Notes: generated from the letters alone by a model not told the origin. Positions 59,831-64,000 are shown, numbered from the stretch's first letter. The stretch: 64,000 nt of DNA from Escherichia coli (GCF_003790525.1 NZ_CP033635.1), one strand, 5' to 3'. Program-made: numbers and translations.

Positions 59831-60523
59831 CTAGTGATAACCACGCGCGGTCATAAAATCCATTATCGCTTTTTCCGCATCAACTAGCACTTGTTCCAGC
59901 GGTTGATTGGCATTGATATCAACCAGTTGCGCGCCTCCAAAGGTTAACTGTGGCGTTATGGCAATCTTCCTCGCCAGCGATTCCCGTTTATGGTCGGGTT
60001 TACGCGCGCAGGCAACTTCAAGGTCAACATTGAGTTTGATGACCAGATCAGGTTTATGGCTCGCCATCCAGTGAAACGCTTTACGCTCCTGGCTTGCCAG
60101 CCATGAGACAAAACGACCACCTTCAACGTTAGGCGGAAACACCGTACCATCGTAAGCGCCAGGAATTTGGTCCTGAGGATAACGGTCGGTTAGAACAATT
60201 AACCCGCGACGACGACAGGCAAGCATATGACGAAAGCGCAGTAAGCGACGGGCGACAAACGCTGTAATTACCAGCGCCGGAACAGGGCCAGGCAATTTTT
60301 TTGCTGTTTTCACCTGATTTCGTTCAATTGTTTTATGTAAGGATTTTCCCATCAACGGTAATTTTGTCACTGCACGACCGACATTTCCGGCCTGTTTTCC
60401 TAAATGAACTCTTTCGGCTGCACCATATTTTTCGACAACGGTAATGAGATGTTCACACACCGTTGACTTGCCTGAACCATCGCTACCAATAACGGCAATT
60501 AATGGAGGTGTTATTGACTGCAT
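59831..60523 (-). CDS. yghT: P-loop NTPase/kinase-like protein YghT (thymidylate-kinase-like DRY motif)
   Basis: 230 aa; Walker [16 protein letters not shown] motif, ARKPDH motif; paralogous to the next two genes. Confidence 0.85.
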
Positions 60524-60696
60524 GAATATATCCTTTAATTTAAATATCCATTAAAAATATTTATTTGGTTAATATGTTTTTATGAAAGCGTAATTCAGGT
60601 CAATGTCACAATTAACCATTGTCACAATAAGGTTGAACGGATATTCTGAGCACGGACCACGTAATATTCAATACATTATTTGCTGCCGGGTTTTTC

Positions 60697-61410
60697 GTGA
60701 ATCAACGTAATATGTCAATAATTAATTCCACGCCAGTGCGTGTTATTGCCATTGTAGGATGTGATGGTTCAGGTAAATCGACCCTCACGGCAAGCCTGGT
60801 AAATGAACTGGCAGCAACAATGCCAACAGAACACATTTATCTCGGGCAATCGTCCGGGCGAATTGGCGAATGGATTTCACAGCTCCCTGTTATTGGCGCA
60901 CCTTTTGGGCGTTATCTGCGAAGTAAAGCGGCACATGTGCACGAAAAGCCCTTAACACCGCCTGGCAATATTACTGCGCTGGTTATCTATCTGCTTTCCT
61001 GCTGGCGGGCGTACAAGTTTCGCAAAATGTTGTGTAAAAGCCAGCAAGGCTATCTGCTCATCACCGACCGCTACCCGCAGGTTGAAGTGCCGGGTTTTCG
61101 CTTTGATGGCCCGCAATTGGCAAAAACCACGGGCGGTAACGGTTGGATAAAAATGTTAAGGCAGCGCGAGCTGAAGCTGTACCAATGGATGGCGTCTTAT
61201 TTGCCCGTATTGTTGATTCGTCTTGGCATTGATGAACAAACCGCGTTTGCGCGTAAACCTGACCACCAACTGGCAGCGTTACAGGAAAAAATCGCCGTTA
61301 CGCCGCAACTGACATTCAATGGCGCAAAGATCCTTGAACTGGATGGTCGGCAACCAGCCGATGAAATTCTGCAAGCGTCACTACGCGCAATTCACGCTGC
61401 GCTTTCCTGA
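60697..61410 (+). CDS. yghS: P-loop NTPase/kinase-like protein YghS
   Basis: 237 aa; Walker A GCDGSGKST, TDRYPQ, ARKPDH motifs; start could instead be the ATG 5 codons downstream. Confidence 0.85.
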   Translation: MNQRNMSIINSTPVRVIAIVGCDGSGKSTLTASLVNELAATMPTEHIYLGQSSGRIGEWISQLPVIGAPFGRYLRSKAAHVHEKPLTPPGNITALVIYLLSCWRAYKFRKMLCKSQQGYLLITDRYPQVEVPGFRFDGPQLAKTTGGNGWIKMLRQRELKLYQWMASYLPVLLIRLGIDEQTAFARKPDHQLAALQEKIAVTPQLTFNGAKILELDGRQPADEILQASLRAIHAALS

Positions 61411-61441
61411 TCACCAAAATGGATAGGGGATGATTTAACGA

Positions 61442-62200
61442 ATGGACGCACTACAAACACAAACTGTTAATAGTACAACCGCGCCGCAGCCCAACTACAT
61501 TCCGGGGCTGATTGCGGTGGTCGGGTGTGATGGCACCGGTAAATCCACACTGACCACCGACCTGGTGAAATCGCTGCAACAACACTGGCAAACCGAGCGG
61601 CGCTATCTGGGGCTGCTCTCGGGCGAAGACGGCGACAAAATCAAACGATTGCCGTTGGTTGGCGTCTGGCTCGAAAGGCGACTGGCGGCCAAATCATCGA
61701 AAACCCAAAGCATGAAAACCAAATCTCCAGCGCTATGGGCGGCGGTGATTATGTACTGCTTCTCGCTGCGAAGAATGGCGAATCTACGCAAGGTTCAGCG
61801 ACTGGCGCAAAGTGGCGTTCTGGTGGTCAGCGATCGCTTCCCGCAGGCTGAAATTTCGGGCTTTTATTATGACGGACCGGGGATCGGCGTCGAACGTGCG
61901 ACCGGGAAAATCAGCATGTTTCTGGCGCAGCGCGAACGGCGTTTATACCAACAAATGGCGCAATACCGTCCTGAATTAATCATTCGTTTGGGGATTGATA
62001 TTGATACTGCCATTTCCCGCAAGCCTGACCATGACTATGCCGAATTGCAGGACAAAATCGGCGTCATGTCGACGATTGGCTATAACGGCACAAAAATTCT
62101 TGAGATTGATTCCAGAGCGCCTTACAGCGAAGTGCTGGAACAGGCACAGAAGGCGGTTTCTCTGGTTGCCATCGTTTCTGACCGCCGAAGTTTAACTTAA
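61442..62200 (+). CDS. yghR: P-loop NTPase/kinase-like protein YghR
   Basis: 252 aa; Walker A GCDGTGKST, SDRFPQ, SRKPDH motifs. Confidence 0.85.
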   Translation: MDALQTQTVNSTTAPQPNYIPGLIAVVGCDGTGKSTLTTDLVKSLQQHWQTERRYLGLLSGEDGDKIKRLPLVGVWLERRLAAKSSKTQSMKTKSPALWAAVIMYCFSLRRMANLRKVQRLAQSGVLVVSDRFPQAEISGFYYDGPGIGVERATGKISMFLAQRERRLYQQMAQYRPELIIRLGIDIDTAISRKPDHDYAELQDKIGVMSTIGYNGTKILEIDSRAPYSEVLEQAQKAVSLVAIVSDRRSLT

Positions 62201-62245
62201 GGCTGGCGGGATACTTTTTACTATCAACGATAAGGTCAGGCTGAA

Positions 62246-63595
62246 TTGGCGGGTTTTAACATCAAACATTGGTTTGCAGATGGCGCGTTTCGCACCATTA
62301 TTCGCAATAGCGCCTGGTTAGGCTCCAGTAATGTCGTGAGCGCTTTACTGGGTCTGTTGGCGCTCTCGTGTGCCGGTAAAGGGATGACGCCCGCCATGTT
62401 TGGCGTACTGGTGATTGTGCAATCGTACGCCAAGTCGATCAGCGATTTTATTAAGTTTCAGACATGGCAGTTGGTGGTGCAGTACGGAACGCCAGCCTTG
62501 ACCAACAATAATCCGCAGCAATTTCGCAATGTCGTCTCATTTTCCTTCTCGCTGGATATCGTCAGCGGCGCGGTGGCGATTGTCGGCGGCATTGCCTTAC
62601 TCCCTTTTCTTTCCCATTCATTAGGTCTGGATGACCAAAGCTTTTGGCTGGCAGCGCTGTATTGCACGCTCATTCCTTCAATGGCTTCCTCCACGCCGAC
62701 CGGCATTCTGCGTGCGGTAGATCGCTTCGATCTAATTGCTGTACAGCAAGCGACGAAACCTTTTCTGCGTGCAGCGGGGAGCGTCGTAGCCTGGTATTTT
62801 GACTTTGGTTTTGCGGGTTTTGTTATTGCCTGGTACGTGTCGAATCTGGTTGGCGGCACCATGTACTGGTGGTTTGCCGCGCGCGAATTACGCCGCAGAA
62901 ATATCCATAACGCCTTCAAATTGAATCTGTTTGAGTCTGCCCGACACATTAAAGGCGCGTGGAGTTTTGTCTGGTCAACCAACATTGCCCACTCCATCTG
63001 GTCGGCGCGTAACTCGTGCAGCACAGTGCTGGTGGGGATCGTGTTAGGACCCGCTGCCGCCGGGTTATTTAAAATCGCCATGACATTCTTCGACGCCGCC
63101 GGAACGCCAGCGGGTTTACTGGGCAAAAGTTTTTACCCAGAGGTGATGCGTTTAGATCCGCGCACCACCAGACCGTGGTTGTTAGGCGTGAAGTCAGGTT
63201 TACTGGCGGGCGGAATCGGTATTCTGGTGGCGCTCGCGGTGTTGATTGTCGGCAAGCCGCTCATTTCGCTGGTGTTTGGCGTTAAGTATCTCGAAGCGTA
63301 TGACCTGATTCAGGTGATGCTGGGCGCAATTGTGATCTCGATGCTGGGCTTCCCTCAGGAGTCATTGCTATTGATGGCGGGAAAACAGCGCGCTTTTCTC
63401 GTGGCGCAAACCATCGCCTCAATCGGCTACATCGTATTGCTGTTCATGTTCTGTCATCTGTTTGGCGTGCTGGGAGCAGCGTTTGCTTATTTCGGCGGTC
63501 AATGTCTGGATGTGGTGCTCTCGCTAATTCCAACCTTAAGGGCATTTTTTCAGCGCCATTCCTTGCTTTATAACGCAGCCGGAGAGAAATCCTGA
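62246..63595 (+). CDS. yghQ: polysaccharide-transporter (MOP/Wzx flippase-like) inner membrane protein YghQ
   Basis: Multi-TM hydrophobic ORF; track start is TTG at 62246 with AAGG upstream; first in-frame ATG is at 62384, so the true start is uncertain. Confidence 0.75.
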   Translation: MAGFNIKHWFADGAFRTIIRNSAWLGSSNVVSALLGLLALSCAGKGMTPAMFGVLVIVQSYAKSISDFIKFQTWQLVVQYGTPALTNNNPQQFRNVVSFSFSLDIVSGAVAIVGGIALLPFLSHSLGLDDQSFWLAALYCTLIPSMASSTPTGILRAVDRFDLIAVQQATKPFLRAAGSVVAWYFDFGFAGFVIAWYVSNLVGGTMYWWFAARELRRRNIHNAFKLNLFESARHIKGAWSFVWSTNIAHSIWSARNSCSTVLVGIVLGPAAAGLFKIAMTFFDAAGTPAGLLGKSFYPEVMRLDPRTTRPWLLGVKSGLLAGGIGILVALAVLIVGKPLISLVFGVKYLEAYDLIQVMLGAIVISMLGFPQESLLLMAGKQRAFLVAQTIASIGYIVLLFMFCHLFGVLGAAFAYFGGQCLDVVLSLIPTLRAFFQRHSLLYNAAGEKS

Positions 63596-64000
63596 TGATG
63601 AGAAAATATTTCCCGCTTGAGGCTAGCGAGCGTCTATTTGTTGCGATTGAAGAAGATGATGTCGTTGATGCACAGGTCAGTTTGCCGCCGACTATCGCAC
63701 TAAGTTGTACCACCGAAATCATCCATGATAATTACGCGTTATGCCTGCAATTCTGGCTCAATGGCGTCAATCGCCAGGAGTTACTGCGTTTAATATGCAA
63801 ACAGGCCAAAGGCGATGAGCTGACTGCTGATGAGCGCAAACAATTTAAATACATGCGAGCGCGCTACAAGCACCTGCGTTTTGCGCAACGGCTGTATTTA
63901 AAGAAGCATCAGGCCGGATTTTTATTCGGTAAAACGACCGTTTTTTTGGGGCGTTTTCAGGACGGCTTTCGTAACGGTAAGAAAAATATTGTGTCGTATT
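63595..64000 (+). CDS. hypothetical protein (YghO-like by position), 5' portion only; continues beyond window
   Basis: ATG at 63595 overlaps yghQ stop by 1 nt (ATGA); hand translation MMRKYFPLEASERLFVAIEEDD... has no stop over 135 codons to the window end; absent from the ORF track because it is open-ended. Confidence 0.6.
   Translation, partial: MMRKYFPLEASERLFVAIEEDDVVDAQVSLPPTIALSCTTEIIHDNYALCLQFWLNGVNRQELLRLICKQAKGDELTADERKQFKYMRARYKHLRFAQRLYLKKHQAGFLFGKTTVFLGRFQDGFRNGKKNIVSY

Follow-up and report, generated by a model that had tools for sequence, protein, structure and literature searches.

The Escherichia coli yghTSRQ genes and a CHAD-like open reading frame open a 13-gene sphingolipid locus and may form its head-group and translocation half

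We analyzed a stretch of Escherichia coli DNA of 64,000 nucleotides (GCF_003790525.1, NZ_CP033635.1; called the window here), in which positions 59831-64000 hold yghT, yghS, yghR, yghQ and an open reading frame (ORF) of 274 codons, orf274. A 13-gene sphingolipid locus begins with these five genes, of which the last is cut by the window end. The first three encode paralogous P-loop kinases with the thymidylate kinase (TMPK) fold, yghQ encodes a flippase-like membrane protein and orf274 a CHAD-like protein. In several proteobacterial orders the kinases, the flippase and the CHAD-like gene co-occur with spt or with lipid-phosphate-modifying genes. The five genes probably serve the sphingolipid pathway, and we lean towards the more specific view that they constitute the head-group and translocation half of the locus. 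A specific pyrophosphate or oligophosphate chemistry of the kinases is a tentative suggestion that we consider rather doubtful. Firm ground for this discussion is given by the content of the locus, the TMPK fold with its intact catalytic motifs, the CHAD-like fold and the conservation of the neighborhood.

According to the ORF list, yghT (59831-60523, minus strand, 230 aa; ORF call, alignment and hidden Markov model (HMM) search) is divergent, while yghS (60697-61410, plus strand, 237 aa, GTG start; ORF call and alignment), yghR (61442-62200, plus strand, 252 aa; ORF call, alignment and HMM search) and the full-length yghQ (62246-63595, plus strand, 449 aa) are co-directional. This agrees with a preliminary description of this DNA, which had also noted correctly that the yghQ stop overlaps the next ORF by 1 nt: the TGA at 63593-63595 shares one base with the ATG of orf274 at 63595-63597 (TGATG). 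That description had taken the coupled ORF for yghO, but it is instead orf274, of which the 5' part (63595-64000, plus strand, 135 of 274 codons) lies inside the window and which runs past its end. The continuation can be read from strain CREC-544 (NZ_CP024826), which is 100% identical over 59700-64000. Here, orf274 is annotated as a 274-aa 'hypothetical protein' and is followed by genes for a YtfJ-family protein, an LptF paralog and an LptG paralog. On the opposite strand are spt and the genes for an acyl carrier protein (ACP), an NAD-dependent epimerase/dehydratase-family protein and a fatty acyl-AMP ligase, after which yghO and glcC come next. The start of yghO lies 7,241 bases (about 7.2 kb) past the end of orf274, with eight genes between them. 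NCBIfam models recognize Spt (600 bits, cut-off 500), LptF (320, cut-off 230), LptG (302, cut-off 240), the acyl-AMP ligase (872, cut-off 600) and the YtfJ protein (217, cut-off 151). The E. coli locus hence contains the five-gene ceramide cluster of Spt, ACP, ligase, reductase and YghO, an N-acyltransferase homologous to the bacterial ceramide synthase (bCerS). In E. coli BL21 the dihydroceramide genes have been described as ECD_02850 (yghO, N-acyltransferase), 02851 (acyl-ACP synthetase), 02852 (reductase), 02853 (ACP) and 02854 (Spt), and clustering of all five was found only in Caulobacter and E. coli BL21 (Padilla-Gomez et al., PMC9386255). Apart from the kinases, the annotation of NZ_CP024826 offers no candidate for a head-group enzyme in this locus.

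Two of the downstream genes deserve a remark. The K-12 annotation of yghO (L001 20962-22104; L004 5044-6216, where L numbers denote our extracted loci) reads 'putative DNA-binding transcriptional regulator'. The E. coli protein has no NCBIfam match, its Serratia and Carnimonas homologs have no Pfam match on record, and the regulator annotation looks doubtful. The YtfJ-family paralog (L001 13732-14292), located between orf274 and the LptF paralog, carries a signal peptide and is kept in 16 loci. Since the annotation of the E. coli locus in NZ_CP024826 lists no LptC paralog, this YtfJ-like periplasmic protein may take part in export.

The locus is common in the species. A megablast search found the segment 59700-64000 in 4,743 of 5,426 complete E. 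coli genomes, in 4,511 of them with at least 80% query coverage, and the whole 13-kb locus is covered to at least 80% in 4,051 of the 5,426 (75%), at one chromosomal site and with ordinary GC content. K-12 MG1655 is different: an IS5 element (IS5LO/insH9; L004, NC_000913.3 3124000-3137000, at 6147-7341, matching just right of window position 63300) separates yghO from a yghQ that is shortened to 355 aa. About 8 kb are missing, comprising the 3' end of yghQ, orf274, the ytfJ-like gene, the lptF and lptG paralogs, spt, acp, the reductase and the ligase genes. Because of this IS5-linked loss, K-12 is a natural mutant of the locus. The yghT/S/R/Q/O cluster of the preliminary description is thus the K-12 state with IS5 and not the 13-gene arrangement of the sequence studied here.

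YghT, YghS and YghR align over their full length with 55 invariant columns, including GxDGxGKST, DR[YF]PQ and RKPDH (GCDGSGKST, DRYPQ and ARKPDH in YghS; GCDGTGKST, DRFPQ and SRKPDH in YghR). In the three-way alignment identity to YghT is 33-36% and YghS and YghR share 44%; pairwise BLASTP scores of 142-183 bits are far above chance. Alignment and scores confirm the paralogy that had been proposed from the Walker A, DRYPQ and RKPDH motifs. The pairing of P-loop and DRY motif was likewise seen correctly, only that the spacing is about 100 and not about 90 residues, a trivial difference. A hydropathy scan predicts no transmembrane segments in the three proteins. The AlphaFold model of YghS, built on a 44-sequence alignment, is confident (pLDDT 91.3, pTM 0.87). 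Its best structural matches are dTMP kinases, followed by deoxynucleoside, adenylate, NadR-type, gluconate and shikimate kinases; the second-best single match is ST1543 (2plr/5h70), a homolog of the catalytic subunit of the polyphosphate kinase PPK3. The P-loop kinase fold is present together with the P-loop, DRX motif and lid of dTMP kinases. Profile and structure searches both put TMPKs first, so that the earlier assignment to a TMPK-type fold rather than to ABC ATPases stands. We also considered the name ABC ATPase, given to some relatives by JGI, and rejected it, as ABC matches are confined to the P-loop. Conservation of the active site was counted over 148 family members from 70-odd loci (YghS numbering): D23, K27 and R125 are each found in 147 and R104 in 144, and R186, K187, D189 and H190 of the RKPDH motif again in 147 each. 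In the 44-sequence profile R125, the arginine of the DRY motif, and R104 on a helix align with two arginines that, in established structural work on TMPKs, hold the acceptor phosphate.

Fold and family membership have to be kept apart, since the trio has the thymidylate kinase fold but lies outside the dTMP kinase family proper. The best NCBIfam model is the dTMP kinase model TIGR00041 with 25.5, 25.4 and 30.9 bits against a cut-off of 83.25. The Pfam family Thymidylate_kin (PF02223) reaches a best i-Evalue of 0.025 over the three paralogs and 0.43 for YghT alone; otherwise, Pfam returns generic AAA/P-loop matches at most. PHROGs give a weak 'thymidylate kinase' match only, and a search of AFDB50 returns unannotated family members only. 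Invariant motifs not found in TMPKs include [YH]LGxxSG, LPxxG, the PQ after DRY, DGP, E158 and K198, and the family has roughly 40-60 extra residues. RefSeq/PGAP calls yghS and yghT 'dTMP kinase' and yghR sometimes 'nucleoside/nucleotide kinase family protein', and relatives in AFDB/UniProt are automatically named 'Thymidylate kinase'. Because the scores fall far below the cut-off, the RefSeq name is not supported by the family model, and judged from these comparisons the 'dTMP kinase' naming is probably a propagated over-annotation. Of the preliminary interpretation as a whole the kinase fold remains, membership in the dTMP kinase family does not, and the sphingolipid context of the locus had been overlooked.

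One could nevertheless argue that the three proteins are genuine nucleoside or deoxynucleoside monophosphate kinases, which supply nucleoside di- or triphosphates for nucleotide-activated head-group donors or are simply redundant tmk paralogs. We consider this quite improbable. It would fit that dTMP kinases are the best HMM and structural matches, that the proteins retain the Asp of the P-loop, the DRY motif and the Arg of the lid, and that genes for CofC-like nucleotidyltransferases are neighbors in eight loci. Among the 148 members, 83 have F and 58 have L at the site aligned with the base-stacking Phe of TMPKs, and two of the three E. coli paralogs keep a Phe at this thymine-stacking position. 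Against it speak the scores given above, the family-specific invariant motifs and the fact that three non-redundant orthogroups are kept together with a flippase and a CHAD-like protein. The trio is not the dTMP kinase of the cell; the essential tmk gene is located elsewhere in E. coli. In contrast to dTMP kinases, the proteins stay under the cut-offs of TIGR00041 and PF02223 and occur as two to four paralogs beside membrane-lipid genes.

As far as sequence comparison can tell, the trio forms, within the dTMPK superfamily, a family of its own that lacks a Pfam model and divides into three ancient orthogroups. When 1.84 billion cluster representatives were searched with a profile, 2,165 relatives came up at E ≤1e-3 and 1,282 at E ≤1e-10. 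The T, S and R orthogroups separate by best hit, with 50-95% identity among orthologs and 33-46% among paralogs; T orthologs, for example, share 51-95% identity from Enterobacterales to Betaproteobacteria and 33-44% with S and R paralogs. The separation is seen in Enterobacterales, Carnimonas, Xanthomonadales, Betaproteobacteria, Halioglobus and delta-proteobacterial metagenome-assembled genomes (MAGs). T is divergently transcribed in the Enterobacterales, Carnimonas and Xanthomonadales loci, with the exception of L071, which starts inside the module. Nearly every copy retains all three motifs, and the paralogs look old and all appear active. ORFs of 475-513 aa, the size of a fused pair but maybe over-extended calls, occur in Bombella, Saccharibacter and Nitrotoga loci (L054 9131-10672; L061 9227-10672; L068 9242-10669; L021 9824-11356), and the representative proteins P0121 and P0122 each contain two kinase-like stretches. 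TMPKs are dimers. Taken together, if the fused-pair ORFs are genuine, this hints that the separate E. coli kinases may act as a hetero-oligomer.

The protein encoded by orf274 is predicted to be cytoplasmic, and its AlphaFold model is all-alpha (pLDDT 94.8). The predicted two-bundle architecture aligns with three solved CHAD proteins over 187-213 residues, and the model shows the two four-helix-bundle fold with conserved histidines and basic residues that characterizes CHAD domains. In an alignment of 26 homologs from the fetched loci D22, R88, K92, H105, Q122, D123, H193, R196, K197, N230, H237, D238 and Y251 are invariant; among them are the three histidines and the basic residues R88, K92, R196 and K197 that recall CHAD (PF05235). 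Sequence searches gave no match in Pfam (including PF05235), NCBIfam, PHROGs or PDB sequences, and the 26-sequence profile hit no CHAD chain of the PDB even at E 10. Unlike typical CHAD genes, orf274 is coupled to a flippase gene and not to genes for TTM, PPK or PPX proteins. CHAD domains have been reported to bind polyphosphate (polyP; bioRxiv 10.1101/567040). We also asked if orf274 is a homolog of the N-terminal domain found in the long forms of the kinase family discussed below, but BLASTP found nothing and the idea was rejected.

Adjacent dTMPK-fold paralogs together with a CHAD-type protein call to mind PPK3 of Sulfolobus acidocaldarius. Hofmann et al. have shown that two Sulfolobus genes, Saci_2019 and Saci_2020, once annotated as dTMP kinases, encode a heteromeric PPK3 and stand in an operon with the CHAD protein Saci_2021; PPX and SixA are encoded together with them as well (PMC12995831). 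In E. coli yghS and yghR are adjacent, yghT is divergent and the CHAD likeness of orf274 is one of fold. By analogy, YghT, YghS and YghR might be a hetero-oligomeric polyP kinase or a polyP-dependent kinase, with orf274 binding inorganic polyP; the connection with lipids would then be an indirect one, or else polyP would donate the phosphate. That kinase paralogs are adjacent and apparently sometimes fused would suit this idea as well. The parallel, though striking, is incomplete, and we regard a PPK3-like polyP system as unlikely. The regulatory subunit of PPK3 has lost the DRX arginine (PMC12995831), whereas this Arg is kept in all three E. coli paralogs and in 147 of 148 relatives, leaving no inactive regulatory paralog. 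Genes for PPX, SixA and Pst proteins are not among the recurrent neighbor families; the constant partners are instead the flippase and lipid-pathway genes such as the LptFG paralogs and spt. In addition, the 44-sequence profile is nearer to solved canonical TMPKs (E 2e-10 to 1e-6) than to 2plr (E 8e-5). Finally, E. coli already possesses PPK1.

YghQ is a multi-transmembrane protein with at least six strong hydrophobic segments in a strict hydropathy scan. It matches Polysacc_synt (PF01943, 1.1e-8) and Polysacc_synt_3 (PF13440, 1.2e-7), and an NCBIfam MOP flippase model covers residues 18-434 with 34 bits against a cut-off of 273. These data bear out the earlier view of YghQ as a MOP/Wzx-like protein, and by sequence we place it in the MOP/Wzx flippase superfamily, at superfamily level only because the score is under the equivalog cut-off. 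Members of the MOP superfamily flip lipid-diphosphate-linked cargo. A flippase for sphingolipids was described as still unidentified in 2024 (JBC, PMC11087976), and YghQ is a candidate for this missing component.

The likeness of YghQ to Wzx- and MurJ-type flippases raises the question whether YghQ and the kinases handle a glycan or a polyprenyl-linked intermediate, for instance by phosphorylation of a sugar or a carrier lipid in a polysaccharide or undecaprenyl diphosphate (Und-PP)-linked pathway. The vicinity of spt would then merely reflect a shared envelope island. RefSeq indeed names YghQ a 'lipopolysaccharide biosynthesis protein', and distant members of the kinase family point in the same direction. 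Hundreds of them are about 500 aa long and have an N-terminal domain (P0165, P0169 and P0177, residues 1-260; motif HFKSN.HL..AL.GETD.D.LVD) to which Pfam and NCBIfam give no match. One such long-form gene overlaps the stop codon of a Polysacc_synt gene in a cluster with GT4, Wzy_C, sulfotransferase and ATP-sulfurylase genes. In P0219 a MOP flippase, the long-form N-terminal domain and a kinase are joined in one protein, while P0255 is a GT4 glycosyltransferase fused to a kinase. As Rosetta-stone fusions, both also count in favor of the sphingolipid model proposed below. The partnership of kinase and flippase is older and wider than the sphingolipid context. A second P-loop gene behind the long-form relatives (L077 8733-9482, L078 9491-10186) does not belong to the YghS family and was discarded. 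For the E. coli system, we think a glycan pathway improbable. In contrast to the usual Wzx/MurJ setting, the E. coli locus contains no glycan-assembly gene, and glycosyltransferase, polymerase and sugar-nucleotide genes are also absent from the Serratia, Carnimonas, Luteibacter/Dyella, betaproteobacterial and Pseudomonas loci. These loci keep spt, acp, ligase and reductase genes beside the kinases despite rearrangements, and the recurrent accessory genes encode lipid-phosphate enzymes.

The conservation of the neighborhood was followed in 72 loci from a scan of one genome per species; with L001-L003 added, 75 were clustered. For the lineages, the 13 E. coli proteins were compared by tblastn and genes within 10 kb of the kinases were counted. 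YghS orthologs share 64-79% identity across Enterobacterales and Carnimonas. Enterobacterales have three kinases and, where contig or flank reach far enough, the other locus genes in at least three gene orders; YghO is often past the flank, and LptF/G or spt are missing in a few. All 13 genes recur in Serratia marcescens in a changed order, in which the ceramide genes lie upstream of yghT. The Carnimonas locus runs from LptG/F over the ceramide genes, the orf274 homolog and the yghO homolog to T, divergent from S-R, which is followed by an Asp/Arg-hydroxylase-family gene and a DgkA-type gene; the flippase is absent from this locus. Luteibacter and Dyella have three kinases with the Spt set, YghQ (65%) and orf274 (51%). 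The Spt set also accompanies two or three kinases in three betaproteobacterial loci and two kinases in three Pseudomonas loci, two of which have LptF/G paralogs. Two kinases are found in Sphingomonadaceae (YghQ 47-57%, orf274 35-45%) and in Acetobacteraceae (YghQ 36-44%, orf274 28-35%), in both cases with no spt within 10 kb. Both families are well known to produce sphingolipids, and their spt genes are dispersed (PMC9386255). Taxa with the kinases, including these two families, Zymomonas and myxobacterial MAGs, are known or predicted sphingolipid producers.

Among the 75 clustered loci the most frequent neighbor families are orf274 (45 loci), YghQ (39), the ligase (27), Spt (26), the reductase (26), LptF/G (20), YghO (16) and YtfJ (16). 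Then come an LmtA-like lipid A 1-phosphate O-methyltransferase (12), an LpxE-like PAP2 phosphatase (10), a membrane PAP2 protein resembling Und-PP phosphatase, PgpB or LpxF (8), a CofC/MobA-like nucleotidyltransferase (8), DgkA (7) and an OlsC/LpxO-like acyl hydroxylase (7). Examples of lipid-modifying neighbors are found at L032 8491-9261, L023 15597-16163, L033 7126-7815, L020 11439-12197 and L003 12359-12730. Judged by their family matches, the accessory genes act on membrane-lipid phosphates or acyl chains. In Pseudomonas bohemica (L049 8068-9834) a gene for a 588-aa MsbA/HepA-like ABC exporter lies between spt and two kinase genes; no YghQ homolog was detected in L049, and the exporter may stand in for the flippase as a non-orthologous replacement. 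The ABC-ATPase cluster to which this exporter belongs is loosely linked and has a member in L059 too.

The preliminary description had also allowed for a nucleotide-modifying system, and P-loop proteins in a variable chromosomal region can suggest an anti-phage or nucleotide-modifying defense module. This reading has almost nothing to recommend it. What can be said in its favor is generic, including weak PADLOC matches, and in all five proteins these matches amount to P-loop-level noise, confined to a region of about 25 residues with a best E of 2e-4. PHROGs return only the weak match mentioned above, the locus is found in 75% of E. coli at a single site with ordinary GC, and no recurrent nucleotide-metabolism genes are nearby.

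A sphingolipid pathway with a comparable layout is known from Caulobacter crescentus, where CC_1152-CC_1168 comprise spt, acpR, aasR, cerR, bcerS, cpgA-D, lptF2/G2/C2 and the flippase candidate CC_1166. The Polysacc_synt type of CC_1166, LptC2/F2/G2 and the head-group genes of this locus have been described (PMC11324152), and LptF2/G2/C2 are needed, with LptB, for sphingolipid transport (bioRxiv 10.64898/2026.04.12.717747). The product is an anionic phospho-sphingolipid that is exported to the outer membrane (PMC11324152, PMC9386255, bioRxiv 10.64898/2026.04.12.717747). E. coli and Caulobacter thus both have the five ceramide genes, LptF/LptG paralogs, a Polysacc_synt flippase candidate and head-group enzymes, established or proposed, at one locus. 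However, the annotation from pitB to glcC includes no CpgB-type ceramide kinase, Tam41-like enzyme, CDP-alcohol transferase or phosphoesterase. In their place E. coli has the three TMPK-fold kinases, the CHAD-like protein and the YtfJ paralog, and no annotated LptC paralog.

We therefore propose the following model for the E. coli locus. Spt, ACP, the ligase and YghO would make ceramide or an oxidized precursor at the cytoplasmic face of the membrane. The three soluble kinases, possibly as a hetero-oligomer, would then phosphorylate the ceramide head group with ATP. Because both acceptor-phosphate-clamping arginines of TMPKs are conserved, the acceptor is likely phosphorylated already, and E. 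coli DgkA, which phosphorylates ceramide in vitro, could provide ceramide-1-phosphate. The reaction may lead from lipid-P to lipid-PP or to a longer chain, a guess based on the phosphate clamp, the cargo of MOP flippases, the CHAD-like partner and the PAP2, LmtA-like and DgkA neighbors. The orf274 protein would bind the phosphate-rich group, YghQ would flip the kinase product, and the LptF/LptG paralogs with LptB would extract it for delivery to the outer membrane. In its boldest form, the model would have a PPK3-like machine of YghT, YghS, YghR and the CHAD-like protein build a di-, tri- or oligophosphate chain on the ceramide anchor at the cytoplasmic face, to be flipped by YghQ and exported by the LptF/LptG paralogs; we hold this version to be a long shot.

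Several observations weigh against placing the five genes in a sphingolipid pathway or against parts of this model. The literature searched contains no report of a lipid product of the locus or of a native E. coli sphingolipid. A phosphorylated acceptor is the most economical guess, and the acceptor substrate is wholly inferred. CpgB, the ceramide kinase known from bacteria, belongs to an unrelated DAGK-type (GGDG) family, and the CHAD-likeness of orf274 is a matter of fold alone. In Sphingomonadaceae and Acetobacteraceae the module of kinases, flippase and CHAD-like protein lies more than 10 kb from spt, so that the link there is phyletic only, and its flanks in Novosphingobium, Gluconobacter and Qipengyuania are unrelated, mostly housekeeping genes. 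The distant relatives of about 500 aa are encoded in polysaccharide clusters of the Wzx/Wzy type, so that, over the entire family, the tie to MOP flippases is closer than that to sphingolipids. Single knockouts of yghQ, yghR, yghS and yghT in K-12 survived like most other strains in a silkworm virulence screen (values of 80-100 in its table); K-12 is in any case without the ceramide genes.

According to the ORF list of 56000-64000, gss (56129-57991) and pitB (58283-59782) precede the module in the window, and pitB is found beside the kinases in 6 of the 75 clustered loci. The stretch from gss to the start of pitB (57750-58500) is strongly AT-rich (35-37% GC) and is probably the regulatory region of pitB. 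A terminator scan revealed a GC-rich hairpin at 59792..59820 (12 bp stem, T-runs, no strand assigned) between the convergent pitB and yghT, which by sequence is likely a bidirectional terminator and the left edge of the locus. In the composition profile, the divergent yghT/yghS spacer (60524-60696, 173 bp) is AT-rich, with 39-41% GC in the 500-bp windows around it, and presumably contains promoters and regulatory sites. A promoter scan gave a single sigma-70-like match (60619-60647, plus strand), no better than expected from shuffled sequence, and no RNA elements reached Rfam gathering thresholds in 59500-64000. A genomic-SELEX peak of FlhDC has been reported in the K-12 yghS/yghT spacer (PMC9962212), which is the same place as this AT-rich region.

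What was known before comprises the five ceramide genes of E. coli and, with its Lpt paralogs, the locus of the Caulobacter type. Our literature search found yghQ, yghR, yghS and yghT only in screen tables and nothing that links thymidylate-kinase-like proteins with Spt in bacteria. It also found no account of yghT/S/R, yghQ and the CHAD-like ORF as a conserved module of a sphingolipid locus, or of the kinases as a separate dTMPK-superfamily family that Pfam does not cover, that has three old orthogroups and whose constant partner is a CHAD-like protein. E. coli is usually described as sphingolipid-free, yet in three quarters of its complete genomes the 13-gene locus is kept intact, and it holds every ceramide gene known from bacteria as well as an Lpt-like exporter of its own. 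The IS5-linked deletion blinds the model strain K-12 to this locus, which helps to explain why yghQ, yghR, yghS and yghT have remained y-genes. Their placement turns four orphan genes into parts of a testable pathway, and makes it testable as well whether E. coli makes a sphingolipid. It further suggests that bacteria reach anionic sphingolipids by a second route that uses different enzymes, which might matter for the outer-membrane barrier, polymyxin sensitivity and host interaction of pathogenic E. coli. If even the ceramide-oligophosphate version were true, other lineages would trim or cap the chain by PAP2 phosphatases and the LmtA-like phosphate methyltransferase, and most E. coli and many Proteobacteria would carry an unseen class of highly anionic outer-membrane sphingolipids.

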